The notes under the pieces: model-generated
The model's input: the letters and a program-made list of their open reading frames with translations, nothing else
Databases searched by the model: none
What the model was told of the DNA's origin: nothing
Made by a program: the position numbers and the translations under genes
From: Alphaproteobacteria bacterium
GTDB taxonomy: Bacteria; Myxococcota_A; UBA796; SXON01
Length of the DNA: 49,481 nt
Direction of reading: 5' to 3'
Assembly: GCA_040376255.1 (NCBI GenBank)
Contig: JBEIQZ010000002.1
Location: 1 to 49,481, forward strand
Shown: piece by piece, positions 1 through 47,152 of the stretch
Position numbering within the stretch: the first letter of the stretch is position 1
Layout: every line of letters begins with the position of its first letter

Positions 1-1448
1 AGGCGCACCGCCTCCGGGTACGCCCGCTGGATCAGCCGCGCCCACGCCCGCGAGCGCCGCACCACCTCCTTCGCCGCCGACCGCTCCCGCCGCCGCGCCG
101 CCGACCGGCTCAGGCCCGGATCGGCGCCGCAGGCGTCCTCGACGAGAAACCGGTGGACCCCGTCGACGGTGGCCTGCAATTCCGGGCTGCGCTCCAGCTC
201 CGCCGCGAACGCCGCCGCAGGCTCCGCGCAGGAGAGCAGCAGCCGCGCCCGCGCCCCGTCCGCGCTCCCGGCCCGGCCGCCCGGATCGTCCTGATCCTCG
301 TCCTGATCATTGTCCTGACCGCCGAAGGCGTCGCGCAGATCGAAGAACCGCAGCCGCACCCCGGCGCGCGGGGTCAGCCGCTCCTGCTCCGCCACCACCT
401 CCTCCAGCGCTGCCCGGTAGCGGTCGCAGTCCCCGTCGGTGATCCCGACGACCTCGGCGAACACATGCCCGTCCGAGCAAAGCACCAGCTCCACCCCCGG
501 CGCGTGGAGCGCGGCGATCTGCGCGCACAGCTCCCGCAGCCCCGCCAGCGCCAGCCACTCCGCCATGTCCGGCAGCGGCCCCAGCACCTTCGACGGGTTC
601 GGGGGCCGCGCAGGGAACCCCGGCAGCACCAGCCGGATCGGCGCCGATCCCGCCATCAGCCGATCCAGCCGCGCCCCCCACACCGCCCGCATCCCCGCCG
701 CCGCCGCCGCGCGATCCGCCCCCGCCCGCAGCCGCAGCCGCCGCTCCAGCAGCCGCAGCACCGCGCCGCTCTCCCCACCCCGCTCTGCTGCGCCCGCCCC
801 GCCGAGCATCCGGCCCAGCAGCCCGTCCGCCCGCCCAAGCCACGCCTCCACCGCCGGGACGCGCCTCAGCGCCCCGGCTGACATCACGGATTCCGTTGCC
901 ATATCAAGTATATCTGCCATTATCTCTTGGGCATCTTCCCGCCCCGCGACCTGCACCTGCGCCAGCACCAGCCCCAGGTGCAGCGCATACAGCAGCCGCA
1001 CATGGCCCGCCTGATCCCGCTCCTCCGGCGCGTCCTCCGCCCCGGCGACCGCAGCGGCGAACACCGACTGCACCCGCAGCCGCACCCGCGCCGTCTCCGC
1101 CCCCAGCACGCCCGTCCGCGACCGCGCGTCCAGCCCCGCCGCCAGCAGCGCCCGCAGCAGCGCCTCCTGCGGCGCCAGCAACGCCAGCTTCCGCGCCGCC
1201 ACGAACCGGAACCGCGCCGCCACCGTCCCCGCCGGGATCTCAGGCACCGCCGCCTCCAGCGCCGCAGCGAGCTCCTCGTAGAGCGCCAGCACGAACCCCG
1301 CCCGGCCCGGGAAGTGCCGGTACGCCAGCCCCAGCGCGCACCCCGCCTCCAGCGCCACGTCCCGCATCCGCAGCTTCTCCAGCCCGCGCTCCGCGATCAG
1401 CCGCAGCGCCGCCTCCAGCAGCCGGAGCCTCGTCTGCGCTGATATCAT
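1..1448 (-). CDS. TetR-family regulator fused to isocyanide (isonitrile) synthase-like domain (PvcA/IsnA/DIT1 family); 3' end runs off the window
   Basis: Not in the ORF track (no stop inside the window). Hand translation from ATG 1448 (ATGA overlap with the stop of the upstream gene at 1445-1447) is open to base 1: MISAQTRLRLLEAALRLIAERGLEKLRMRDVALEAGCALGLAYRHF (TetR HTH) ... IRLVLPGFPARPPNPSKVLGPLPDMAEWLAL ... VELVLCSDGHVFAEVVGI ... RRSRAWARLIQRAYPEAVRL (DIT1/PvcA motifs). Frame checked at 566, 884-920 and 1448. Confidence 0.85.
   Translation of the reverse strand, partial: MISAQTRLRLLEAALRLIAERGLEKLRMRDVALEAGCALGLAYRHFPGRAGFVLALYEELAAALEAAVPEIPAGTVAARFRFVAARKLALLAPQEALLRALLAAGLDARSRTGVLGAETARVRLRVQSVFAAAVAGAEDAPEERDQAGHVRLLYALHLGLVLAQVQVAGREDAQEIMADILDMATESVMSAGALRRVPAVEAWLGRADGLLGRMLGGAGAAERGGESGAVLRLLERRLRLRAGADRAAAAAGMRAVWGARLDRLMAGSAPIRLVLPGFPARPPNPSKVLGPLPDMAEWLALAGLRELCAQIAALHAPGVELVLCSDGHVFAEVVGITDGDCDRYRAALEEVVAEQERLTPRAGVRLRFFDLRDAFGGQDNDQDEDQDDPGGRAGSADGARARLLLSCAEPAAAFAAELERSPELQATVDGVHRFLVEDACGADPGLSRSAARRRERSAAKEVVRRSRAWARLIQRAYPEAVR
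288..323. repeat. 3x 12-bp imperfect tandem repeat (GTCCTGATCNNN) encoding an acidic QDNDQDEDQDD insertion
   Basis: gtcctgatcctc / gtcctgatcatt / gtcctgaccgcc read directly from the sequence. Confidence 0.7.
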
Positions 1449-3667
1449 CCCGGCTCCCACTCCTGCTCTCCGTCCCCGTCCGACCCGTCCGGCTCCCACG
1501 GCTGCTCTCCGTCCTCCTGCTCCCCGTCCTCCTGCTCCCCGTCCTGTTCCGGCTCCCGCGCCACCCCCGGCGACATCTCAGCCCACCGCGCCCGGAGCAG
1601 CGTGAGCGCCGCCCCTTCTCCCGCGTCGCGCAGCCACCACGCGCCGTCCTCCAGCACGGCGGGGTTCTGCGCAGCGGTCGCCGCGCCGATGGCGGCAGCA
1701 GCGACGCTGAACGGGCAGCCGAGATCCCTGGCGATGTTGTCGAGCTGGATGGCGGCCTCGCGGGCCTCCTCCGGCTGATCGTGGTCGAGGTGGAGGCTCA
1801 GCAGCAGCAGCCACGCCCCGGCGGCGAGCTGCGGAGCGGCCGGGCCGAGCAGGGTCGCGGCCCAGTCGAGGTGCAGCTCTGCGGCCCCGGAGAACCCGGC
1901 GGGAAGCAGCCACGCGCCGAGCAGCAGGTGGAGCCGCCCCAGCGTCGCCTCGTCGTCCCCGTCGTCGGCCTCGTCGATGGCCTGCTCCAGCAGATCGCGC
2001 GCCTCGGCGGTCTTCCCGCGCTGGTAGAGCGCCATCGCCTCCTCCCAGCCCGCCGGGAGGGCGGCGGGCTGGAGATCAGCCGGGGCGTCGGGCATCAGCC
2101 GCCCCGCCAGAAAGCAGAGGGCGCCGCGCCGGAGCAGCCCGGTGCTGCCCTGGAGCGCCACCGCCTCCTGCGAGAGCGCGGCGAGCCGCTCCAGCGCCTC
2201 CTCCCCCTCCGCGCCGACCAGCCCCTCCACGTCGCGCCCCACCCGCACCAGCCGCCGCGCCGCCCGCTTCAGCAGCGTGTCAAACAGCGCGCAGATCCCC
2301 GAGGCCTCCTGCGGATCGAGCCACGGCAGCGCTGCCATCGCCGCCGTCGCCACCTCGACCTGCAGCAGCCCCATCGCGCTGAGCAGCGCGTTCATCCCGT
2401 CGAACAGCGCCGTCACATCGGACTCCCGGATGCCCGGGGGCGGCGCCTCCTCATCGAACAGCGCGCCGAACATCGCGTCGTAGGCGGCGAGCTCCTCGTC
2501 TGCAGATCCGATTCCCTGACCGCTCATCCGATCCTGCTGCCACAGATCCAGCGCGGGCAGCACCGAGATCGCCGCGACGCGCTCCAGCGCGCGCAGGGCG
2601 GGGCCGGGGGCCTCGTCGGCCAGATCGACGTCGGCGGGCTCGGCCAGCTCCCCCTGGACGTGCTCAAAGATTGCGGGGGCGGTGAGCTGCCCCTGCGGGG
2701 CGAGCGCGGCGGCGGCCTCCTCAGCCAGCCCGCGCGTCCGGGCGTCGAGCGCCACCTCAAGCACCGGCTCCCACTGACCGCGATCCATGCCGCTGAGGAT
2801 CAGCTCAGAGAGCGCGAGGACGTGGGCGATCGAGCCCGCGAACCCGAGCCGCTCCGTCGGGACCGGGTGGGAGGCCACCGCCACCGCCAGCAGCCGCGCG
2901 TCCGGCTGATCCGCCCAGGCCGACAGCAGCTTCAGGATCGCCGATCCGCGCCCGTAGGCGTTGTCCAGCCGGTTCAGCCCCGCCAGCAGCTCCAGCGAGA
3001 ACGGGCGCAGCGCGCACCGGAAGGCATGCCGCAGCCCCCGCGACAGCAGCCCCGGCGACCAGGGCGCCTCCCCCAGCGCCTCCTCTGCACCGGCGAAGTC
3101 CAGCAGCTCCGCGTCCTCCCCGTCCTCCTCCCCGATCCCCTCCAGCGGCGCATCCTCGTCGGGCTCCGGCAGCGAGGGCATCGGCCGCCAGCGCCCGCCC
3201 GCCCGGCGCGCGGGGTCGGCGTCCGCGTCGTCGTCGCCGCCGAAGTAGTGGCCCACCCCCCAGGGAGAATTGCCGGTGGAGGTGCCGCCCGCGTGGCCGA
3301 AGATCGGCAGCACCCGCTCGACCTCGTTGCTGTCGGCCTCCTTCTCCTGCTCCTGCTCCTCCGCCTCCTCCTCGCGCTGCTTCTGCTCCTGCGCGGTGTT
3401 GTCGCCCGAGTCGGTGGTCGTCTCGCTGCCCTGCTTGATCAGGCCCTGGAGCGCCGCGTTGCCCATGCTGGCCTGGATCTGCGCGGCGAGATCGTGGGAC
3501 AGCTCTGTCTTCTCAGCAGACTTCTCCCCCTTCTCGCCGATCTTGTCCGCCGCCTCCTTCAGCGCGTCCAGCTTCGGATCGAGCCTCTGGCTCGGCGTGT
3601 TCTTGACCGCGTCGAGGATGGAGCGCGGATCTTTGCCGTCCGGTCGTCGCTGGTAGGAGGTGGCCAT
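1445..3667 (-). CDS. Hypothetical protein: acidic/disordered N-terminus, helical core, TPR-like C-terminal region, EQEDG-repeat tail
   Basis: ORF 1445..3724 trimmed to ATG 3667 (MATSYQRR...), which has TATATT 6 nt upstream. Natural composition; TPR-like helices (WEEAMALYQRGKTAEARDLLEQAI); stop overlaps the next start. Confidence 0.75.
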   Translation of the reverse strand: MATSYQRRPDGKDPRSILDAVKNTPSQRLDPKLDALKEAADKIGEKGEKSAEKTELSHDLAAQIQASMGNAALQGLIKQGSETTTDSGDNTAQEQKQREEEAEEQEQEKEADSNEVERVLPIFGHAGGTSTGNSPWGVGHYFGGDDDADADPARRAGGRWRPMPSLPEPDEDAPLEGIGEEDGEDAELLDFAGAEEALGEAPWSPGLLSRGLRHAFRCALRPFSLELLAGLNRLDNAYGRGSAILKLLSAWADQPDARLLAVAVASHPVPTERLGFAGSIAHVLALSELILSGMDRGQWEPVLEVALDARTRGLAEEAAAALAPQGQLTAPAIFEHVQGELAEPADVDLADEAPGPALRALERVAAISVLPALDLWQQDRMSGQGIGSADEELAAYDAMFGALFDEEAPPPGIRESDVTALFDGMNALLSAMGLLQVEVATAAMAALPWLDPQEASGICALFDTLLKRAARRLVRVGRDVEGLVGAEGEEALERLAALSQEAVALQGSTGLLRRGALCFLAGRLMPDAPADLQPAALPAGWEEAMALYQRGKTAEARDLLEQAIDEADDGDDEATLGRLHLLLGAWLLPAGFSGAAELHLDWAATLLGPAAPQLAAGAWLLLLSLHLDHDQPEEAREAAIQLDNIARDLGCPFSVAAAAIGAATAAQNPAVLEDGAWWLRDAGEGAALTLLRARWAEMSPGVAREPEQDGEQEDGEQEDGEQPWEPDGSDGDGEQEWEPG

Positions 3668-8404
<4,737 letters not shown>

Positions 8405-38259: not shown

Positions 38260-39920
38260 GCGGGCTGATCTTCTTCGCCGCGCTGGCCGCGCTGCTCGCG
38301 CTCGGCCCCCGGCTGTTCGTCGTGGTCGGCGTCGCCACCACGCTCTCCTTCCTGCTGTTCACCGACTATGACAGCTCGCTGATCCAGCTCGACCGCATCG
38401 TCACCAAGATGGAGAGCCTGACCGGGAAGAACGTCTTTTTATCGGTGCCGTTCTTCATCGCCGCCGGCTCGATCATGACGCGCGGCGGCATCGCCACCCG
38501 GCTGACCGCGCTGGCGAGCGCCGGGGTCGGCTTCCTGCCGGGCGGGCTGGCTGTGGCGTCGATCCTCGCCTGCATCGTTTTTGCTGCGATCTCCGGCTCC
38601 TCGCCGGTCACGCTGGTCGCCGTCGGCGCGGTCATGTACCCGGCCCTCGTCCGATCAGGCTACCCCAGCCGCTTCTCCATCGGCATCCTGACCTCGGCGG
38701 GCAGCCTCGGCTGCATGATCCCGCCCGCGATCACGATGCTGATCTACTCGATCTGCGTCGACGCCTCGACGGCCCGCGTCAACCCCTCCGATCTGTTCTT
38801 CGCCGGGCTGCTGCCCGCGCTGTTCATCGCCGGTCTGCTCGCGCTCTACTCGATCTGGGTCGGGCTGTCGGTGCCGGGCTCCCGATCCCCGTTCGACGGA
38901 GCGGCGCTCAGCCGGGCGGCCCGCGAGGCGGCGTGGTCGCTCACCCTCCCGGCGGTGGTGCTGGGCGGGATCTACGGCGGCATCTTCACCCCCACTGAGG
39001 CGGGCGCGGTGGCCTTCGCAGCGGCGCTGCTGATCGCCTGCGTGATCCACCGGGATGTCCCGTGGTCGAAGGTGCCGTCGATCCTCGTCGAGTCCGCCAC
39101 GCTCATCGGCAGCCTCGTGCTGATCGTCATCCTCGCCTTCGGCCTCAACGATTTTCTCGCAGAGATCGACGCAGCGGGCGCGATCCGCACCTGGGTCACC
39201 GACGCCGGGCTCTCAGCGTTCCAGTTCATGCTCGTCGTCAACTTCGTGCTGATCGTGCTGGGCGCGCTCATGGACAGCATCTCGGCCACGCTGGTCTTCG
39301 CTCCCATCCTCGCCCCGGTCGCGATCAACCACTACGGAATCGACCCGATCCACTTCGGCGTCGTCTTTGTTGTCAACATGGAGATCGGCTACCTCGCCCC
39401 GCCCATCGCCACCAACCTGTTCGTCGCCTCCGCCATCTTCCGCCAGCCCTTCTCGGAGGTGGTCAAGTCGATCTTCCCGACACTCTCGATCATCTGCGGG
39501 GCGCTGTTCGTGCTGATGTACATGCCCGTCTTCTCGACCGGCCCGCTCAACCTGCGCGAGGGCCGCGCGGTCTACACCTCCTTCCCCTGGGACGGCAAGC
39601 CCGCCCCGGAGGCCGCGCCCGGCGAGCCGGCAGGCGATCCCGCCGCAGCGCCCCCCGGCCAGCCGATGACGATGGAGGAGATGAAGCAGCGCGCCCGCGC
39701 CCGCCGGGAGGCGGAGCAGAACGGCGCAGCCCCCCCGGATGGCGCCGCCCCGGACGGCACCGCTCCCGCCGAAGGCCGCGTCCTGACGATGGAGGAGATG
39801 AAGCTCCGCGCCCGCCAGCGCGCCGAGGAGGCCCGCAAGGCTGAGGGGTCTGCTGCTCCAGGGACGCCGGAGGCACCCGCACCGGACGCGCCAGCCACCC
39901 CGGAACAGCCGCCCCGGTGA
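38256..39920 (+). CDS. dctM: TRAP transporter large permease with C-terminal repeat extension
   Basis: SVPFFIAAG, FAAISGSS, GSLGCMIPP, GIFTPTEAG, GIDPIHFG, EIGYLAPP. Confidence 0.93.
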   Translation: MSGLIFFAALAALLALGPRLFVVVGVATTLSFLLFTDYDSSLIQLDRIVTKMESLTGKNVFLSVPFFIAAGSIMTRGGIATRLTALASAGVGFLPGGLAVASILACIVFAAISGSSPVTLVAVGAVMYPALVRSGYPSRFSIGILTSAGSLGCMIPPAITMLIYSICVDASTARVNPSDLFFAGLLPALFIAGLLALYSIWVGLSVPGSRSPFDGAALSRAAREAAWSLTLPAVVLGGIYGGIFTPTEAGAVAFAAALLIACVIHRDVPWSKVPSILVESATLIGSLVLIVILAFGLNDFLAEIDAAGAIRTWVTDAGLSAFQFMLVVNFVLIVLGALMDSISATLVFAPILAPVAINHYGIDPIHFGVVFVVNMEIGYLAPPIATNLFVASAIFRQPFSEVVKSIFPTLSIICGALFVLMYMPVFSTGPLNLREGRAVYTSFPWDGKPAPEAAPGEPAGDPAAAPPGQPMTMEEMKQRARARREAEQNGAAPPDGAAPDGTAPAEGRVLTMEEMKLRARQRAEEARKAEGSAAPGTPEAPAPDAPATPEQPPR

Positions 39921-41416
39921 CAACCTCCGTCCTGCTGATCAACCCGCGCATGTGCTCGCAGGAGACCATGCGGATGCCGCTCACCCTGCTGGCGCTCTCG
40001 GCGGTGCTGGGGGATCGCTACCCCCACCACATGCTCGACGGCAACCTGCTGCCGGATCTGGCGGGGACGGTGGCCTCGCTGCTGGCGTCTGCACCCGGCG
40101 CGGCGGTCGCCGGGATCAGCGTGATGCCCGGCCCGCAGGTGGCGCCCGCCATCGAGGTCAGCCGCCTGATCCGGCGGCTGCGCCCCGACGTCCCGATCGT
40201 CTGGGGCGGCTACTTCCCGAGCATGTACCCGGATTCTGCCGTCAACGCATCCTACGTCGATGTGGCGGTGCGCGGCCCCGGCGAGGACGCGCTGCTGGAA
40301 TTGCTCGCCCTGGCGGAGCGGGGCGGCCTCCGGCCCGGCGCGATGGACACGGCTGCCCTGCAGGGCGTCGCGGGGATCTCCTGGGCGCAGGCGGGCGCGC
40401 CGATCCACACCCCGGCCCGCCCCTTCCGCTCCCCGGACAGCCTGCCCCTGCTCCCCTACGAGCGGCTGCCCGATCTGGGGCGCTGGATGAAGCCGACGTT
40501 CCTCGGCCGGCGCACGGCGTCCTACCAGGCGGCCATCGGCTGCCGCTACCGGTGCGGCTTCTGCGGCGTGGTGTCGGTGTACGGGGGGCAGACCCGGCTG
40601 CAGGGCGTGGATCGCGTGGTGGCGGAGACGCTCCGGCTGAAACACGAGTTCGGCGCGGACGCGCTCCAGTTCTACGACAACAACTTCTTCGACAGCGGGG
40701 ATTCGGCCCTGGCGATGCTGGAGGGGCTGGCGCGGGTGGGGCTGCCGTGGTGGTGCTACGCGCGGGCGGACACGATGGCGAAGTTCCCGGCGCAGACCTG
40801 GGAGAAGGTGCGGCGGAGCGGGATGAAGATGGCCTACATCGGCGCGGAGTCGGCCAGCGACGAGGTGCTGAAGTCGATGAAAAAAGGGAGCCGCGTCGAG
40901 CACACGCTGGAGGTCGCGGCGCGCTGCCGGGAGATCGGGGTGATCCCCGAATTCTCCTTCGTGCTGGGCGGGCCGGAGGACCCGGAGGGCGAGATCGACC
41001 GCACGCTCTCCTTCGTGCGCCGGGTCAAGGCCGCCCACCCGGAGTCCGAGATCATCCTGTACTTCTACAGCCCCACCCCGCAGCGCGACCGCGCCCTCAC
41101 CGGCTACGGACCCGGCGGCCCGCCGCTGCCGACCACCCCGGAGGAGTGGGCGCAGCCGAAGTGGGTCGAGTACGTCTGCCACCAGGACGCGCCCTGGCTG
41201 GCGCCCGAGGTGCGACAGAAGATCCTCGACTTCTCGCGGGTGCTGGCCTGCCGCTTCCCGACCGTGCAGGATCACCGCCTCGGCCCGCGCCGCCGCAGGT
41301 TCCTGCAGGCACTCGCAGGCTGGCGCTACGACCGCGAGTACTACAGCAACGCCTGGGAGCTGGAGACGGCGCGGCGGCTGCTCCGGCTGAAGCGACCGGA
41401 GCGGGAGGGGCTGTAA
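39917..41416 (+). CDS. B12-binding domain radical SAM enzyme (class B methyltransferase-like)
   Basis: GTGA overlap with dctM; PIVWGGYFPS and VRGPGE cobalamin-binding region; CxxxCxxC (GCRYRCGFC); FYDNNFF; IGAES. Confidence 0.92.
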   Translation: MTTSVLLINPRMCSQETMRMPLTLLALSAVLGDRYPHHMLDGNLLPDLAGTVASLLASAPGAAVAGISVMPGPQVAPAIEVSRLIRRLRPDVPIVWGGYFPSMYPDSAVNASYVDVAVRGPGEDALLELLALAERGGLRPGAMDTAALQGVAGISWAQAGAPIHTPARPFRSPDSLPLLPYERLPDLGRWMKPTFLGRRTASYQAAIGCRYRCGFCGVVSVYGGQTRLQGVDRVVAETLRLKHEFGADALQFYDNNFFDSGDSALAMLEGLARVGLPWWCYARADTMAKFPAQTWEKVRRSGMKMAYIGAESASDEVLKSMKKGSRVEHTLEVAARCREIGVIPEFSFVLGGPEDPEGEIDRTLSFVRRVKAAHPESEIILYFYSPTPQRDRALTGYGPGGPPLPTTPEEWAQPKWVEYVCHQDAPWLAPEVRQKILDFSRVLACRFPTVQDHRLGPRRRRFLQALAGWRYDREYYSNAWELETARRLLRLKRPEREGL

Positions 41417-42844
41417 TCAGAGCGCAGTGATCACGCCGCTCGGCCAGTCGATCTCGAAGAAGGGCGCGTAGTAGTCCTCCTGATCGACGTTGCGCGTGTC
41501 AGTCCAGACCTGGAGGCCGCCGAGGTAGACGTTGACCGTCACATCGTTGCGGCCATTGAAGACCGAGCCGGGGAAGTCGTGGACGTAGAAGGTGTAGAGG
41601 CCGTTGGCCGGGGCCCGGATGTTGATGTTCTCCGGGCCGGTGCCGGAGATGTCGTCCAGATCGAGGGCCGGGTTGTCGTCGGTGTCGCCGCGCACGCCCC
41701 AGTCGAGGCCGCCGAAGGTGCAGTTGCCGTAGTAGCAGTCGGTGTTGCTGACCAGCGAGCCGCCGGGAGCGACGAGGTGCATGTCCATGTCGTCGCCGGA
41801 GTGCTGCCAGAACATCTCGATCCAGAAGTCGGCGCCGGGGACGGACTCCAGATCGGTGACGCAGGGCTCGGAGGAGATGCCCTGCGAGTTGGTGACGATG
41901 AGCTGGGCGGTGTAGGTGCCGGCGACGTCGGTGGTGAAGCCGGAGCGGTTGGCGGTGCCGTTGGGCATGCGGACGCTGGAGCCGGAGGGCTGGCTGATCA
42001 GTGTCCAGTTGTAGTTGGTGATGGTGAGGCCGTTCGGGTCGAAGGAGCCGCTGCCGAAGAAGGTGGCGGACTCCCAGATGGTCTCGACCGGCGAGGGGGC
42101 GACGGAGCAGACCGCCACGGGGACGTCGGCGGCCATGCCCATGAGCGGGACGACCGTGGCGCCGCCGGGGTCGTTGCTCTCGATGGAGACCTCGCTCTCG
42201 TACATCCCGTAGGCGGTGGGCGCGAAGCTGACCTCGATGTCCTCGGACTCGTTCTCGCCGAGCGAGATGGGGAAGCTGCCGCTGGCATTGAACGGCGCGT
42301 CGGGGCCGTTGATGCCGCTGATCTCCAGCGTGCCGGTGCCGACGTTGGTGAGCGTCAGGAACAGGGTCTCGCTGTCGTTGAGGTTGACGTTGCCGAAGTC
42401 GATGGTGGCGGGGCGGGCCTCCAGATCGGGCGCGCCCTCGCCGCCCTCCAGCACGACCTCGACGGTGCCGTTGGCGTCGTCGTTGCTCTTCACGATCGCG
42501 GTGGCGGTGTCGAAGTCCGACTCCGGCACATAGACGATCTCCACGTCCAGCTCATCGCCGGGGGCGATGGTGCCGGGCTCTCCGTTGGAGAACACGGTGA
42601 ACGCGCCGGAGCCGTTGATGGTGATCGGCTCGACGATCAGGGGGGCGTCGCCCACGCTCTTGATCGTGAAGCTCTTGACCTTGTCGCTGCCCATTACCAC
42701 CGTGCCGAACTCCAGCACGGAAGGGGTGACCTCAATGAACGAGTCGCCGATCAGCCCGTCCCCGAACTTGGAGATCCCGGCTTCCATCGAGCAACCGGTG
42801 GCGGCGAGGAGGAGCAGGAGGCTGAAGCGCGGTGCAGCAGTCAT
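41417..42844 (-). CDS. Lipoprotein with two Ig-like (choice-of-anchor D/ASH) domains, a PKD-like domain and a YfaP/DUF2135-like C-terminal domain
   Basis: MTAAPRFSLLLLLAATGC (ATG 42844); LEFGTV / IDFGNV...TLTNVGTGTL...SND repeats; GSGSFDPNG...YNW; DMDMHLVAP...LDLDDISGTGPENI. Confidence 0.82.
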   Translation of the reverse strand: MTAAPRFSLLLLLAATGCSMEAGISKFGDGLIGDSFIEVTPSVLEFGTVVMGSDKVKSFTIKSVGDAPLIVEPITINGSGAFTVFSNGEPGTIAPGDELDVEIVYVPESDFDTATAIVKSNDDANGTVEVVLEGGEGAPDLEARPATIDFGNVNLNDSETLFLTLTNVGTGTLEISGINGPDAPFNASGSFPISLGENESEDIEVSFAPTAYGMYESEVSIESNDPGGATVVPLMGMAADVPVAVCSVAPSPVETIWESATFFGSGSFDPNGLTITNYNWTLISQPSGSSVRMPNGTANRSGFTTDVAGTYTAQLIVTNSQGISSEPCVTDLESVPGADFWIEMFWQHSGDDMDMHLVAPGGSLVSNTDCYYGNCTFGGLDWGVRGDTDDNPALDLDDISGTGPENINIRAPANGLYTFYVHDFPGSVFNGRNDVTVNVYLGGLQVWTDTRNVDQEDYYAPFFEIDWPSGVITAL

Positions 42845-42964
42845 GGTGGTTCCCAGGGCAGAGATGTACAGAGCCAACGTGGAGTGTAGATCATCCACAG
42901 ACGCACAGCTATAGCTTTCTGGCGTCCAGCGCAAGATCCTTGAAACAGCGATGCTACCAGCCTG

Positions 42965-43708
42965 CTAAGGCATCGCCATACAGGAGCCATTCACCGCGCC
43001 CGGCGTCCCGTACTGATCGCCGTACATGTCGCCGGAGAGGCACCAGTACTGAACGTCGTCGTTGGACACAGCGTCGAGCATGCCCGGCGCGAGCATGTTG
43101 CTGTAGCCCTTGCTGTCGGGCCAGGCCGGGCCGTCGAGGTAATTGACGCGATCCACCTCCACTGATCCAGCCTTCAGCACGATCTCGTCGTCGTCGTTGC
43201 CGAGGATGAACAGCGCCCCGTCATAGGCATAGTCCACCGGCGTCCCGCCGTTTGTCGCGCTGTCCGCGTTGTTGCCGAGCACCACGTACGCCCCCGGCGC
43301 GATCATCGGCGCCCCGGTGAGCACCACCAGGTCGGTGCCGTCATCAGCGAGCGCCAGGCGGCCGAGATCGAGGCTGCGGCTGCCCGCGTTGTAGATCTCC
43401 AGCCACTCCCCGGCGGCGTCCTCGACGAGCAGCGAGTTCTTGAAGAACTCGGTGATCACCAGCTCTCCGGCGACGGGCGCATCGGCGTCGCTGTCCGAAT
43501 CCGAGTCCGAGTCGCTGTCCGAATCTGAGTCCGAGTCGCTGTCCGTGTCGGAGTCCGTGTCGGAGTCCGTATCAGAGTCGGAGTCCGTGTCGGAGTCCGT
43601 ATCCGTATCGGTGTCTGTCTCGCTGTCGGCGCTGGTGTCGGTGCTGGCGGCGCTGTCGTCGCCCTTGTAGGTCGGGGGGCAGGCCATGAGGAGGAGGTTG
43701 AGGATCAT
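42965..43708 (-). CDS. Lipoprotein with Ser/Thr-Asp repeat linker and lamin-tail (LTD) domain
   Basis: MILNLLLMAC; (S/T)D repeats; GELVITEF...GEWLEIYN...LGNDDDEIVL...GTPGAVN LTD motifs. Confidence 0.88.
   Translation of the reverse strand: MILNLLLMACPPTYKGDDSAASTDTSADSETDTDTDTDSDTDSDSDTDSDTDSDTDSDSDSDSDSDSDSDSDSDADAPVAGELVITEFFKNSLLVEDAAGEWLEIYNAGSRSLDLGRLALADDGTDLVVLTGAPMIAPGAYVVLGNNADSATNGGTPVDYAYDGALFILGNDDDEIVLKAGSVEVDRVNYLDGPAWPDSKGYSNMLAPGMLDAVSNDDVQYWCLSGDMYGDQYGTPGAVNGSCMAMP
43487..43628 (-). repeat. 6-bp unit (S/T)D dipeptide repeat tract
   Basis: gtcgga/gtccgt/gtcgct units giving DTDTDSDSD... Confidence 0.9.
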
Positions 43709-43762
43709 TGGATCTCCAGGCTGGGCGCGCGCTATCCGATCCGCCGCCTGACCGCCACCCGC

Positions 43763-44446
43763 TCAGACCGCCGGGTGGCGGCTCAGCGCCTCGACGCGGG
43801 GCGAGGCGGCCAGATCCAGCACATATGTCACCATCTTCTTGCCGTAGAAGGTGAAGTCCTGCACCCTGGAGAAGCCCCAGCTCTGCAATTGCCGGTTGGC
43901 GGCTTCGTTGTCGACCTCGGTGCTGATCTTTACCTTGTCGCAGCCCCGCGCGAGCAATTCATCGAACAGCACCTTGTTGATGTGGCCGGAGACCCGTTTG
44001 CCGCGCAGGTGCGGCGCGAAGGAGCAGAACAGGCTCTCGGCGGGGACATCGGCGGCGCCGGATCGGTCGCCGTAGCGCGCCGTCTCCAGCAACGGACGGA
44101 GCAATTGCGGGCGGCGCAGCAGCCCGAGCAGCAGGGAGGGCGCCACCAGCAGGGCGCAGCGCCGCTTCACGTCGTCGAACAGCGCGCGGGTGTCGGTGGT
44201 CCCGGCGATGAAGCCGCGCACCTCGTTGTCCTCGACGTAGACGAACCCGATGAAGAACGGGCAGTTGACCATCCCGAAGTACAGATCGGTGAGGAAGCGG
44301 AGGCCGAGCCGCGCCCACAGGCTGTTGCCCATCGCCGCGTGGTGCAGCGCGGCGACGGCGGGCGCGTCGCGGAACTGGAGCGGGCGGATGTTCCGCATGA
44401 CATCGGGATCGACCGGGAACGGTTTGACGCTCGCGTTGACGCTCAC
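43763..44446 (-). CDS. GNAT-family acyltransferase
   Basis: NIRPLQFRDAPAVAALH, VRGFIAG, FAPHLRGKRVS (motif A), DNEAANRQLQSWGF; GTGA overlap with the dpgB stop. Confidence 0.85.
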   Translation of the reverse strand: MSVNASVKPFPVDPDVMRNIRPLQFRDAPAVAALHHAAMGNSLWARLGLRFLTDLYFGMVNCPFFIGFVYVEDNEVRGFIAGTTDTRALFDDVKRRCALLVAPSLLLGLLRRPQLLRPLLETARYGDRSGAADVPAESLFCSFAPHLRGKRVSGHINKVLFDELLARGCDKVKISTEVDNEAANRQLQSWGFSRVQDFTFYGKKMVTYVLDLAASPRVEALSRHPAV

Positions 44447-45183
44447 GGGGCCTGCCGCTTCTTCTTCAGCGTGTCCAGGAACGCCGACTGGCTGATCGCC
44501 CGGTGCTGCGCGGCGAGGAAGTTGCCGATGGCCTCCTCGAAGGGCGCCGAGGCCGACTCCAGCAGGAGCCGCCGCGCCAATTGCACCGCGACCGGGTGGA
44601 CAGGCTGGAGGCGGGGCAGCCAGCGATCGAGCGCCGCCGCGTCCGGCTCGACGCTGTCAATGAGCCCGATCTGCGCCGCCTCCTCCGCAGTGACGACCTC
44701 GCCGGTCAGGATCATGCGCCGCGCCCGCCCCATCCCGACGAAGCGGGCCAGCCGCCACGTCGACATGCCAGGCAGGAAGCCCATGCGGACCTCCGGCAGC
44801 GACAGCGTGACCCCCGGCAGCGCCAGCCGCAGATCGCAGGCCAGCATGAGCTGCACCGCTCCGCCGCTCAACGGGCCGTCGGCCAGGAAGATCGTCAGCA
44901 TCGGGAGCGTCTCGAAGCGGTGGACGAGCTTCTCCCACTTGTTGAAGCCGTGGATGTCCAGCCCCTCCTTCGGGTCGAAGTCAGCGAAGTCGATCCCCTC
45001 GCTCTGTCCCTGGATCAGCAGGAGCTTCGTGCCGGACGCCGCGAGCTGATCTTCAAGCTGGTCGCAGACGCGCTCCATCTCGCGGATCTGGCGCACGTTG
45101 ATGCGGGCGCGCAGCAGCCGGAGGGTCGCGACCTCGCCCTGCGCTGTGAACGAGACGGTCTCAAAATCCGGTGTCCCCGCCAT
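44443..45183 (-). CDS. dpgB: Enoyl-CoA hydratase/isomerase, DpgB-like
   Basis: Crotonase motifs GGAVQLMLACDLR and PEVRMGFLPG; KWEKLVHRFETLP and FEEAIGNFLAA resemble DpgB; adjacent to dpgA. Confidence 0.72.
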   Translation of the reverse strand: MAGTPDFETVSFTAQGEVATLRLLRARINVRQIREMERVCDQLEDQLAASGTKLLLIQGQSEGIDFADFDPKEGLDIHGFNKWEKLVHRFETLPMLTIFLADGPLSGGAVQLMLACDLRLALPGVTLSLPEVRMGFLPGMSTWRLARFVGMGRARRMILTGEVVTAEEAAQIGLIDSVEPDAAALDRWLPRLQPVHPVAVQLARRLLLESASAPFEEAIGNFLAAQHRAISQSAFLDTLKKKRQAP

Positions 45184-45223
45184 CCCTGCTCCCGGCCTGC
45201 AGCCTGTCCCTACCAGCTAACCG

Positions 45224-46291
45224 CTACCAGCGGATCAGGGCAGTCTCAATCTGTGAGCCCGGCCCCATCGTCATCATCACCCCGTAGTCTCCCCGGCGCA
45301 CCCGGCCCTCCTCCAGCAGCCGCCGGTAGCTGAACAGGAAGCTCCCGCTGGAGAGGTTGCCGTAGTCGCGCAGCACGGAGTGGGTGTGGCGGACATCCCA
45401 GTCGGTGATGCCGATGTTGTACTTGATCGCGTCCACGACCTTTTTTCCGCCGGAGTGGACGACCCAGTGGCTGATGTGCCGCCGCTGCAGCGCGAACCGC
45501 GCCAGCAGCCGCTTCAGCGGCAATTCGGCATGCGCCCCGACGACATAAGGGATGTCCCGATCCAGAAAAAAGCTGTACTTTCCAGCCTTGTCGTCCCAGT
45601 CGAACCGCATCGCATCGAGCGCCTCTGGAATAATCTGGCTCTCGAAGCCCAGCACCTCCGGCGCGAACAGCCGGTCGTCCCGCTCCGACACCCGCACCAC
45701 CGCCGCCGCCGCCCCGTCCCCGAACAGGCTGTTCACGATGGCCGTCCGCATCGTCCCGTCGAACACATAGGCCGCTGAGCAGACCTCCACGCATGCCAGC
45801 AGCGCCGTCTTCCCCGGGTTCGCCAGCGCCCAGGACGACACCACGTTCAGCCCGTTCAGCCCCGCGTTGCAGCCCATCCCCACGATGTCGGCGCGCGCGC
45901 AGTCGGTGCGGAGCCCGAATTCCCGGATGAACAGCGCGGTCAGCCCCGGCGTCAGCCAGCCGGTCGAGGTCAGGCAGCAGAGGTAGTCGACGTCCTGCGG
46001 CCCGATCCCCGCCGCCGCCAGCGCCGCCCGGATCGCCTGCCCGCCGATCTCCAGCGCCCCCCGCCGGTGCTTCGCCAGCAATTGCCCCTGCGTCTCGTCG
46101 GGCCGCCCGTCGGGGCCGGGATCGGGCAGGTAGAGGTGGCGGGTGCGGATGTGGGAGCTGGTAAAGAGGCTGCGGAGCTTCGGATCGGCGACGCTGTAGC
46201 GCTCCAGCAGATCCTCCTGCCGGTAACGCTGCGGCGGGTTCGCGGTTCCCAGAGCGATCAGGCGGGGACGGCTGGCGGCGGTCTGCATCAT
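45224..46291 (-). CDS. dpgA: Type III PKS, 3,5-dihydroxyphenylacetyl-CoA synthase
   Basis: LCCLTSTGWLTPG, DIVGMGCNAGLN (Cys), CSAAYVFDGTMRTAIVNSLFGDG, IPYVVGAHAE, HWVVHSGGKKV (His), LRDYGNLSSGSFLFSY (Asn), MTMGPGS...ALIRW: DpgA-specific signatures. Start 46291 or 46288. Confidence 0.9.
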   Translation of the reverse strand: MMQTAASRPRLIALGTANPPQRYRQEDLLERYSVADPKLRSLFTSSHIRTRHLYLPDPGPDGRPDETQGQLLAKHRRGALEIGGQAIRAALAAAGIGPQDVDYLCCLTSTGWLTPGLTALFIREFGLRTDCARADIVGMGCNAGLNGLNVVSSWALANPGKTALLACVEVCSAAYVFDGTMRTAIVNSLFGDGAAAAVVRVSERDDRLFAPEVLGFESQIIPEALDAMRFDWDDKAGKYSFFLDRDIPYVVGAHAELPLKRLLARFALQRRHISHWVVHSGGKKVVDAIKYNIGITDWDVRHTHSVLRDYGNLSSGSFLFSYRRLLEEGRVRRGDYGVMMTMGPGSQIETALIRW

Positions 46292-46373
46292 CGGATCATA
46301 TCGTATCGGTAGCGCAGGCGGAGAGAAGCAGATACCCATAGGGTGCGGGTACAGCCCCACCGCAGGAAGATAC

Positions 46374-46880
46374 ATGGCGCTCACGCCGCTCGACGTACTC
46401 CAGAGACAATTCCAGGCCGCCCGGCGCGCAGGTTACGATCCTGAAGACGTACAGGACTTCCTCGATCAGATCCGGGAAGCCTGGGAGGCCGACCGCGAGG
46501 AGGCCCACCGGCTCCGCGAGGACGCCCGCCTGAAGGACGCGGAGATCTCGCTGCTGCGCCAGGAGCAGGAGGAGATCCGGGAGACGCTGGTGATGGCCCG
46601 CCGGATCTCGGTCGACACCGAGGCGCAGGCCCGCCGGGAGGCCGATCTCGTCGTCGGAGAGGCCCGGCTGGAGTCTGAGCGCATCCTCGCCGTCGCCCAC
46701 GAGGAGCAGCGTCGTATCCAGGAGGATCTTGTGCGGATGAAGTCCATGCGGATCCAGTCCATCGCCCATCTCCGCGCGCAGGTGGAGATGGGCGCCGGGC
46801 TGCTGCGCGAGATCGAGCGCATGGATCAGGGCGCCCCTCAGGCTCCCCGCGCCCCGGCAGGCGGCGCGCCGCGCGGATGA
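46374..46880 (+). CDS. divIVA: DivIVA domain protein
   Basis: MALTPLDVLQRQF...GYDPEDVQDFLDQI followed by coiled coil. Confidence 0.9.
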   Translation: MALTPLDVLQRQFQAARRAGYDPEDVQDFLDQIREAWEADREEAHRLREDARLKDAEISLLRQEQEEIRETLVMARRISVDTEAQARREADLVVGEARLESERILAVAHEEQRRIQEDLVRMKSMRIQSIAHLRAQVEMGAGLLREIERMDQGAPQAPRAPAGGAPRG

Positions 46881-47152
46881 CCACGCTCTCTGTGCGCGTC
46901 CAGCCCGGCGCCCGGCAGAACTGCCTGATCGCCACGCCGGAGGGCTGGAAGATCCAGGTCGCCGCTCCGCCGGTCGATGGCGCCGCCAATGAGGCGCTCT
47001 GCGCCTTCCTCGCCCGCGAGGTGCTGCACCTCCCGACCCGCGCCGTCACCGTCCGATCGGGCGCCGGCGGCCGCCGCAAGCTCCTCAGCATCGACGCGAC
47101 CGCCGGGGAGGTCGAGGCCGCCCTCCAGTCCTGGGCCGCCGCCCACCCCTGA
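46877..47152 (+). CDS. DUF167 (YggU/UPF0235) protein
   Basis: LSVRVQPGARQ...KIQVAAPPVDGAANEALCAFLA...GAGGRRK. Confidence 0.92.
   Translation: MTTLSVRVQPGARQNCLIATPEGWKIQVAAPPVDGAANEALCAFLAREVLHLPTRAVTVRSGAGGRRKLLSIDATAGEVEAALQSWAAAHP

Follow-up and report, generated by a model that had tools for sequence, protein, structure and literature searches.

A lineage-wide dpgA–dpgB–GNAT trio in uncultured Myxococcota, and a candidate diversion of the dihydroxyphenylglycine pathway to an acyltransferase

Three genes lie head to tail on the minus strand of a 49,481-nt stretch of DNA (hereafter the window; contig JBEIQZ010000002.1 of assembly GCA_040376255.1, labelled Alphaproteobacteria bacterium and placed by GTDB in Myxococcota_A, UBA796, SXON01): dpgA, which encodes a type III polyketide synthase (PKS) of the 3,5-dihydroxyphenylacetyl-coenzyme A (CoA) synthase (DpgA) family, a gene for a DpgB-like crotonase, and a gene for a divergent, acyltransferase-like protein with a predicted GNAT fold. 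Rather than a one-off cluster, this trio is a module found lineage-wide in uncultured, mostly freshwater Myxococcota and passed on by vertical descent. Judging from sequence comparison, we put at about one half the probability that its DpgA and DpgB-like proteins make 3,5-dihydroxyphenylacetyl-CoA (DPA-CoA), and that the GNAT protein transfers the acyl group of this thioester to some acceptor.

The established role of DpgA is to open a route to a non-proteinogenic amino acid for glycopeptide and pheganomycin-type peptide antibiotics. Here, an activated intermediate of this dihydroxyphenylglycine (Dpg) pathway is seemingly diverted to a dedicated acyltransferase. The genomes seen include no cultured representative of this phylum and habitat, and more than 100 species-level genomes retain the module. 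If this reading is true, it would add a new fate for the CoA-bound product of a type III PKS, a new GNAT subfamily that combines an aryl-acetyl donor with a non-canonical CoA motif, and, for planktonic Myxococcota, a candidate for a conserved small molecule or modification. As only three small genes are involved, it is directly testable by heterologous expression, with no need to culture the hosts.

The trio and its distribution in the Myxococcota

The 355-residue product of dpgA (45224..46291, minus strand) scores 547.7 bits against the NCBIfam DpgA equivalog model NF042429 (cut-off 425), and proteins above this cut-off were found in 54 of the 61 genomes of the same order, a set that includes the window genome. 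Across 21 of 21 orthologues its Cys141, His279 and Asn312 are unchanged, and they align with GLGCVAG, HPGGPKV and GNLSSAS of Pks11. The protein is 58% identical over 346 residues to the PGAP-annotated DpgA of Streptomyces decoyicus, 56-61% identical over its full length to 17 DpgAs borne on actinomycete plasmids, and 59-69% identical to the DpgAs of other families within its own order. In a tree of 27 rows, with five actinomycete sequences and one outgroup, the DpgAs of Myxococcota and actinomycetes form one compact group (end branches of 0.2-0.4), and the genome's other type III PKS is remote from it, on a branch of ~10. Within the Myxococcota, the groups of this tree track taxonomic families; it does not resolve the split between actinomycete and Myxococcota sequences, and names neither a donor nor a direction of transfer. 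On the strength of its orthology, the window DpgA would make DPA-CoA from four malonyl-CoA.

Two other observations concern the type III PKSs of these genomes. In one relative (G026, C151:5964-6482), the DpgA match spans only model positions 174-350, in mid-contig and beside an intact dpgB and GNAT gene; this dpgA may be truncated, carry a frameshift or be misassembled. A second, non-DpgA type III PKS is encoded in the window genome (G000:C621:1107-2093, minus strand; 172 bits on the DpgA model) and in most relatives, with a crotonase-family gene lying divergently within ~1-1.2 kb of it in four genomes (G033, G003, G020 and G060). It may correspond to an alkylpyrone-type cluster described in the available text of PMC12766979.

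The gene downstream of dpgA (44443..45183, minus strand) encodes a crotonase-fold protein of 246 residues, for which the DpgB model NF042431 is by far the best in NCBIfam (133.6 bits against a cut-off of 140, with the next model at 77.6). The same model was matched by 20 of 20 crotonase orthologues (best E 5.7e-39), and dpgA is immediately followed by this gene in 54 of the 55 relatives with both. The protein is 30% identical to one annotated DpgB. This is on par with the 31% reported between the DpgBs of Xanthomonas and Amycolatopsis, in the part of PMC3849588 available, and therefore supports a DpgB-like partner.

An earlier note on this DNA had described a dpgA with a Cys-His-Asn triad, a crotonase gene 40 nt downstream and a GNAT gene overlapping the crotonase stop, all of which proved accurate at the coordinates given here. 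It had also proposed a genome search for dpgC, dpgD and hpgT, the remaining genes of the known route. DpgC was found in 0 of the 61 genomes of the order at E<=1e-25, 35 of these genomes being at least 90% complete, in a search that returned 571.9 bits for its positive control on the S. decoyicus plasmid. The window assembly is a metagenome-assembled genome (MAG) of 983 contigs, estimated to be 86% complete; in it, the best DpgC score was 58 bits against 530. DpgD and an HpgT-like aminotransferase were searched for in this assembly only, where the best matches were 179.5 bits against a cut-off of 400 for DpgD, so there is no equivalog, and 37.8 bits at 27% identity for the aminotransferase. Neither a non-ribosomal peptide synthetase (NRPS) nor a Dpg-using peptide ligase lies near the trio, in the window or in 20 related loci. 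Hence the earlier description of a cluster without dpgC, dpgD, an aminotransferase or an NRPS holds in full for the locus; across the 86%-complete assembly none of the first three was found, and NRPS condensation domains are present on three other contigs (C524, C911 and C889). With DpgC absent, the known route to Dpg is missing despite these condensation domains. DpgD is likewise absent from the fetched stretches of three of four actinomycete operons, and present in one, so its absence here is not unusual.

All three genes of the trio were found in 55 of the 61 genomes of the order, and none of them in the remaining six, namely the full set of five genomes sampled from family f4 and one other that is 75% complete. 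The three genes are colinear, in the order dpgA-dpgB-GNAT, in 47 of the 55; the GNAT gene is adjacent to dpgAB but convergent in two (G039 and G055), and elsewhere in six, comprising five genomes, all of genus g2, in which dpgAB are together and the GNAT gene is on another contig, and one (G045) with the three genes on separate contigs. Across 401 genomes drawn evenly from the phylum, 50 had a match to the GNAT profile and 49 to DpgA, with 48 having both and 350 neither. Of the two genomes with the GNAT only, one is 83% complete with its match at a contig end, and the other has a weak match (94.8 bits) with two in-frame TGA codons; the single genome with DpgA only is an assembly in 910 contigs. 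The pairing of dpgA with the GNAT gene extends to five more families, four of them in the same class and the fifth in another. It was not found among the genomes sampled from f4 (20) and f8 (nine), two families of the same order. In at least five lineages, the GNAT gene has been retained after parting from dpgAB: genus g2 (five genomes), genus g21 (G045 and G229), G332, G084, and G374, in which it lies ~15 kb from dpgAB.

Public data give a similar picture. In a species-representative genome collection, the best 80 of 122 GNAT loci all came from MAGs; 67 were colinear with dpgAB, two convergent, two cut by a contig end and one uninformative, with eight having the GNAT gene alone within 4-kb flanks. 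The labels of these 80 loci are mostly Myxococcota, Delta- or other Proteobacteria, and many isolate names suggest lakes, while the stretch itself occurs chiefly in metagenomic runs from fresh, river or drinking water, and in a single run labelled marine. Some trio-bearing public MAGs (L060, L064, L067, L074, L077, L082 and others) are labelled Klebsiella pneumoniae, Enterobacterales, Bifidobacterium breve or Alphaproteobacteria, labels that look wrong.

The ten proteins flanking the trio in the window were compared with 20 related loci of ~13-19 kb, and are shared only by the closest relative and a few loci of family f1. Beyond the nearest relatives the flanks differ, which leaves the trio itself as the unit of conservation; its flanks had rightly been called unrelated. 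The earlier note had named two outcomes that would count against its proposal, dpgC/D and a Dpg-activating NRPS being present elsewhere together with a GNAT that uses only acetyl-CoA, or a GNAT gene not conserved beside dpgAB. No dpgC was found in the 61 genomes, and the GNAT gene is conserved beside dpgAB; as for the donor used by the GNAT, we infer it from the patterns considered below.

The GNAT-fold protein and its proposed role

The third gene (43763..44446, minus strand) encodes a 227-residue protein that scores 18.4 bits against Pfam Acetyltransf_1, below the threshold of 20.7. This model was matched at E<=0.01 by six of 25 clade members (best E 0.0024), and a precomputed Pfam domain is attached to none of the 120 listed among its 586 close homologues. 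The GNAT fold is nevertheless unambiguous in the predicted structure. An AlphaFold2 model (pLDDT 91.8, pTM 0.89) gave 397 Foldseek matches at E<=0.001, the top one at E 1.4e-7, and in VIA-align reached a Z of 18.2 to 1wk4 (rmsd 2.1 with 159 residues aligned), 17.9 to SsHAT, 16.2 to RimI and 16.1 to puromycin N-acetyltransferase, with 238 chains at Z>=8; a profile search of the PDB matched Naa30 (E 3.6e-5). A search of the ESM Atlas with this protein returned only its own Myxococcota cluster and generic GNAT clusters. In the model, residues 86-128 form a helical insert that separates strand β3 from β4, and the protein has a conserved C-terminal tail.

The 25 clade members were compared with 111 more distant members of the family, which are 32-39% identical to the window protein over ~190-210 residues (12 best BLAST rows). 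Both groups have E137 (104 of the 111 distant members), H35, Y125 and N180 in common, and E137, which is invariant in the clade, is a likely candidate for the general base. The clade alignment has a mean column identity of 66%, with 57 invariant columns, and the residues that are specific to the clade are concentrated as follows. In β4, the invariant S138, C141, S142 and F143 stand for Leu, Ile, Ala and Val respectively; in the CoA loop and helix α3, R151 replaces the canonical Gly and is accompanied by G154, H155 and N157; and in α4, Q186 stands for Phe or Leu and W190 for Leu. The canonical pyrophosphate-binding motif of GNATs is Q/R-x-x-G-x-G/A. Its first residue is present here as R148, and there is no alignment gap between E137 and I156, yet position 151 is Arg in 23 of the 25 clade members and Lys in the other two, as against Gly in 82 of the 111 distant members. 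The usual tyrosine of α4 is Leu in 25 of 25. In GNATs, β4, the CoA loop and α4 are the elements that hold the acyl-pantetheine. As the clade-specific residues fall within these acyl- and CoA-binding elements, and the presumed catalytic residues are kept, the pattern fits a changed acyl donor; the smaller, polar side chains of β4 would fit the accommodation of a bulkier dihydroxyaryl acyl group.

In the known pathway, DpgA condenses four malonyl-CoA with a C8-to-C3 aldol closure, and is described as decarboxylating its own starter malonyl-CoA, according to the sections available of a review (PMC6274091); DpgB and DpgD enhance DpgA, and DPA-CoA is the substrate of DpgC (PMC3849588, in the part available). 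By orthology, the window DpgA would likewise condense four malonyl-CoA into a CoA-bound tetraketide, and the DpgB-like crotonase would aid its dehydration and aromatisation to DPA-CoA. Such an intermediate is an activated CoA thioester, and is therefore the type of donor that GNAT enzymes use. In four of four annotated actinomycete operons, dpgC follows directly after or overlaps dpgB, and in the Myxococcota trio this same position is held by the GNAT gene. The occupation of the dpgC slot by a GNAT gene that overlaps the dpgB stop fits a CoA thioester as the substrate of the GNAT.

Gene order, co-retention and residue pattern together suggest that the GNAT would bind DPA-CoA as its acyl donor, in place of the oxidation by DpgC and the transamination that follow elsewhere. 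The recipient of the 3,5-dihydroxyphenylacetyl group would be a nucleophile, most probably an amine, carried by a common cellular metabolite or macromolecule, and free CoA would be released. Since conservation of the trio extends to no transporter, tailoring gene or carrier protein, the acceptor is expected to be a compound or macromolecule that the cell produces anyway. That the module has been kept throughout an order, and outside it, suggests a function in cell physiology, for instance in signalling, protection or the modification of envelope or proteins, rather than the production of a strain-specific antibiotic. The earlier note had proposed that the GNAT transfers the CoA thioester to an amine: the dpgC slot and the conservation beside dpgAB speak for this, while both DPA-CoA as donor and an amine as acceptor are extrapolations from such patterns. 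It falls somewhat short of an even chance, in our estimate, that DPA-CoA is the direct acyl donor of a new GNAT subfamily that places a resorcinol-acetyl group onto a common cellular amine, whether of a metabolite, an envelope component or a protein. We are similarly tentative in suggesting that the Ser/Cys-lined β4, the Arg in place of the motif glycine, the helical insert and the conserved tail evolved for DPA-CoA, and that the product is lineage-defining and vertically kept. A literature search, in which supplementary tables were not covered, found no description of dpgA-dpgB with a GNAT, nor of DPA-CoA as an acyl donor.

Several observations weigh against acyl transfer from DPA-CoA. The motif glycine has been replaced by Arg or Lys throughout the clade, and two of the top structural neighbours are acetyltransferase-like domains of O-GlcNAcase, one of which is called a pseudo histone acetyltransferase in its PDB title; for these reasons, a non-canonical or non-catalytic role is possible. 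The nearest solved structures are those of ordinary acetyltransferases, among them RimI, Ard1/Naa10, puromycin N-acetyltransferase and SpeG. The DpgB-like protein falls just below its equivalog cut-off, and none of its 20 orthologues is clearly above it. The shared presence and absence of the genes reflects few independent events, as adjacent genes are lost jointly and relatives share ancestry. Where the GNAT gene has relocated, its neighbours at eight loci (genes for a P-type cation ATPase, a deoxynucleoside kinase, a GSDH-family protein, an E1-type dehydrogenase and unknowns) give no clue to the acceptor, and the one locus of the distant family that was inspected has radical SAM, U32 peptidase and MttB genes, with no PKS nearby. 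Finally, the observations made here are of gene identities, order, distribution and residue pattern, and each chemical step, the donor and the amine acceptor are read from these.

The GNAT might instead be an ordinary acetyl-CoA-dependent N-acetyltransferase, acting on an aminated derivative or partner of the polyketide or on an unrelated substrate, with DPA-CoA being hydrolysed or used elsewhere. This would suit its structural neighbours and the Naa30 match, the RimI/RimJ-like annotation of its homologues, and its distant family, in which eight of ten members exceed the Acetyltransf_1 threshold and fusions to glycosyltransferases, ATP-grasp enzymes and a second GNAT occur. However, DPA lacks an amine that could be acetylated, and the trio has no conserved aminotransferase gene beside it; the GNAT gene occupies the dpgC slot; the clade-specific changes lie in the elements that bind the acyl group and CoA, while the presumed catalytic residues are common to the wider family; and a co-occurrence with dpgAB tight enough to outlast relocation is hard to explain if the functions are unrelated. 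Overall we regard an acetyltransferase as unlikely, though far from negligible. A little less probable again is a GNAT-fold protein that is not a transferase, whether a thioesterase-like releaser, a malonyl-CoA decarboxylase that supplies an acetyl starter, or a non-catalytic partner of DpgA or DpgB. The GNAT-like loading domains of modular PKSs and malonyl-CoA decarboxylase set a precedent for decarboxylation, and the clade-invariant S138 and H155 may resemble the Ser/Thr-His pairs of GNAT-type decarboxylases; the loss of both the motif glycine and the α4 tyrosine, and the pseudo-acetyltransferase among the top structural neighbours, would also be consistent with such a role. Yet the wider family has E137, H35, Y125 and N180 too, strong constraint acts on the protein as a whole, and H155 sits at the start of α3, in the CoA loop region, which is probably not the place of the catalytic His in the decarboxylases. 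A helper decarboxylase would in any case be unneeded by a DpgA that decarboxylates its own starter, as the available sections of PMC6274091 describe. A complex prediction for DpgA, DpgB and the GNAT (from alignments, with the GNAT as partner) scored 0.00 against a mark of 0.32, and is evidence neither way.

The divergence could also lie earlier in the pathway, with the DpgA and crotonase of this clade making another small aromatic polyketide thioester, of different chain length or cyclisation, which the GNAT would then handle. The sub-threshold crotonase and the unresolved placement of Myxococcota relative to actinomycete DpgAs would allow this, as would the residues at the two positions presumed to be the catalytic acids of crotonases: these are Gln and Glu in Myxococcota, as against Asp and no acid in S. 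decoyicus DpgB, so that both differ. But DpgA scores well above its equivalog cut-off in 54 of 61 relatives, and the window protein is as close to actinomycete DpgAs as to those of other families of its own order, making a different product quite improbable. An ordinary Dpg pathway, with dpgC, dpgD, hpgT and a Dpg-using NRPS lying elsewhere in the genome, would be accommodated by the 86%-complete assembly in 983 contigs and by the condensation domains on C524, C911 and C889. It is nonetheless close to refuted by the failure to find DpgC in any of the 61 genomes, 35 of them at least 90% complete, with a search whose positive control worked, and by the lack of a DpgD equivalog or a convincing HpgT-like protein in the window assembly. 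Production of DPA-CoA, followed by GNAT-mediated transfer of its acyl group, is the reading that we retain, at roughly even odds.

Structure and surroundings of the locus

Read from the sequence, the dpgA-dpgB spacer (45184..45223, minus strand) is 40 nt from the dpgA stop TAG to the dpgB ATG, with a purine-rich gggagcaggg right before this ATG, and dpgB shares a GTGA tetranucleotide with the GNAT gene (44443..44446, minus strand), TGA being the stop of the former and GTG the start of the latter, an arrangement typical of translational coupling. The start of dpgA is the ATG at 46291; an alternative, longer GTG frame extends to 46384, with the family match starting at its residue 43. Upstream, an 82-nt divergent intergenic region (46292..46373) separates dpgA from a divIVA-like gene on the plus strand (46374-46880; Pfam DivIVA match). 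This region is presumed to contain the promoter of the trio, by position only, as a sigma-70 consensus scan of 42800-46900 returned no promoter-like site. An accompanying terminator scan gave four weak terminator-like sites against 1.3 expected, none meaningfully placed between genes. The divIVA-like gene is followed by a yggU-family (DUF167) gene and then a PHP-domain gene.

On the other side, 54 nt downstream of the GNAT gene and on the same strand, lies a gene for a lamin-tail-domain protein with a long Asp/Ser/Thr repeat (42965-43708, minus strand), with no terminator-like site in between, and beyond it a gene for a choice-of-anchor-D protein. A lamin-tail homologue is found downstream of the GNAT gene in 15 of the 80 public loci, and this gene may be co-transcribed with the trio in part of family f1. 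Elsewhere, the window contains gyrA, htpG, and genes for a Ser/Thr kinase and an M16 peptidase. Its G+C content ranges over ~65-76%, and the G+C content at third codon positions (GC3) is 0.88-0.93 in the trio genes, similar to that of their neighbours. This similarity and the housekeeping surroundings (gyrA, htpG and divIVA) make the trio look native, and part of an ordinary chromosome rather than an island.

Contigs from three metatranscriptome libraries of different studies match the window at 44401-44542, 46029-46278, 44956-45138 and 43276-43469, with 0-6 differences, covering short pieces of dpgA, dpgB, the dpgB/GNAT junction and the downstream gene. The junction is bridged, over 44401-44542, by a 156-nt contig of RNA library X18, a weak hint given that DNA carry-over is possible in such libraries. 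These matches are hints of expression in nature, and not proof of transcription, and stretches without a match carry no information.

Genes that recur beside the trio in other genomes were considered as further parts of the module, namely those for a protein of ~580-650 residues together with HD-domain, ABC-2 transporter and enoyl-CoA hydratase genes; they were rejected because they are absent from the window locus, and the ~580-650-residue protein also because it is multi-copy. This protein has no Pfam or NCBIfam match, and its gene lies divergently beside dpgA in families f2, f3, f6 and f7 (for example L038:6661-8415 and L038:1969-3645, both minus strand; also in G060, G056, G051, G058, G049, G055, G054, G039, G053 and G046), with an HD-domain protein encoded nearby in five fetched loci (L038, L041, L042, L044 and L049). 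It is not adjacent to the trio in the window's own family. In family f5, a generic enoyl-CoA hydratase gene lies directly upstream of dpgA (L045:7376-8089 and L046:6758-7900, both plus strand; Pfam ECH_1 129.5 bits; 108 bits on the DpgD model), giving a four-gene version of the module and possibly a functional stand-in for DpgD; the extra crotonases near the trio score 104-112 bits on the DpgD model, for which the cut-off is 400.

Within the window itself, a B12-binding radical SAM gene (39917-41416, plus strand), between a TRAP-type transporter gene and the choice-of-anchor-D gene, was considered as a tailoring gene and rejected, as a counterpart was present in 0 of 20 related loci, the closest syntenic relative included. 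That relative (L037) has both neighbours of the radical SAM gene without the gene itself, which looks like a local insertion or loss. At the other end of the window (1445-8404) are three large adjacent open reading frames of 759, 991 and 573 codons' worth of residues (GC3 0.88-0.93), with no Pfam match at E<=1e-5.

Comparison with known systems

GNATs that use bulky or aryl acyl donors include the glycine and glutamine N-acyltransferases (phenylacetyl-CoA), MbtK/Rv1347c, the FeeM-type N-acyl amino acid synthases and the LuxI-type aryl-homoserine-lactone synthases. The mechanism proposed here is the same as theirs, in that a non-acetyl acyl group would move from a thioester to an amine. However, no specific affinity of the window protein to these enzymes was found in sequence or structure, its nearest structures being small acetyltransferases; Rv1347c, at rank 19 of the Foldseek search, was the sole bulky-donor GNAT in it. 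The window clade is further distinguished by its own helical insert (86-128), by Arg or Lys for the motif glycine, and by its Ser/Cys-rich β4. With the wider family of GNATs of ~195-205 residues, from Chloroflexota, Omnitrophota and other uncultured bacteria, it shares the region of the helical insert as well as E137, H35, Y125 and N180. In contrast to the clade, this wider family keeps the R-x-x-G motif, a hydrophobic β4 and the match to Acetyltransf_1, and is without the N-terminal KPFPVDP and C-terminal SRHPAV of the window clade.

Another type III PKS locus with vertical inheritance in the same phylum is the alkylpyrone-type cluster reported to be conserved in cultured Myxococcota (PMC12766979), which differs from the trio in PKS family and product; in the text available of that source, the words 'dihydroxyphenyl' and 'acetyltransferase' are absent.

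The closest counterpart is the actinomycete DpgA-DpgB-DpgC-(DpgD)-HpgT pathway of glycopeptide and pheganomycin-type antibiotics, represented here by operons fetched from plasmids of S. decoyicus, S. globosus, Streptomyces sp. NBC_01278 and S. cellulosae (L136 and L138-L140). In S. decoyicus, the gene order is dpgA-dpgB-dpgC-aminotransferase-methyltransferase-adenylation. The Myxococcota trio has the same dpgA to dpgB order and a third gene abutting dpgB, and its first two steps presumably also yield DPA-CoA. However, this third gene encodes a GNAT, whereas theirs encodes the DpgC dioxygenase, and the trio has no aminotransferase, NRPS, PGM1-type ligase or amidinotransferase gene nearby. The actinomycete genes are also part of a large antibiotic cluster, whereas the trio is inherited order-wide within the Myxococcota.

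Dpg genes outside the actinomycetes have a precedent in the META-B locus of Xanthomonas, in which dpgA-D and hpgT accompany an NRPS in a Gram-negative bacterium (PMC3849588, in the part available). The identities between its proteins and those of Amycolatopsis, at 55% for DpgA and 31% for DpgB, are comparable to those reported here. Yet, on the same partial account, Xanthomonas keeps DpgC, DpgD, HpgT and the NRPS, and with them the canonical pathway, whereas the trio has none of these. The trio of the uncultured Myxococcota shares the first two enzymes of the Dpg pathway with actinomycetes and Xanthomonas, and replaces the third.

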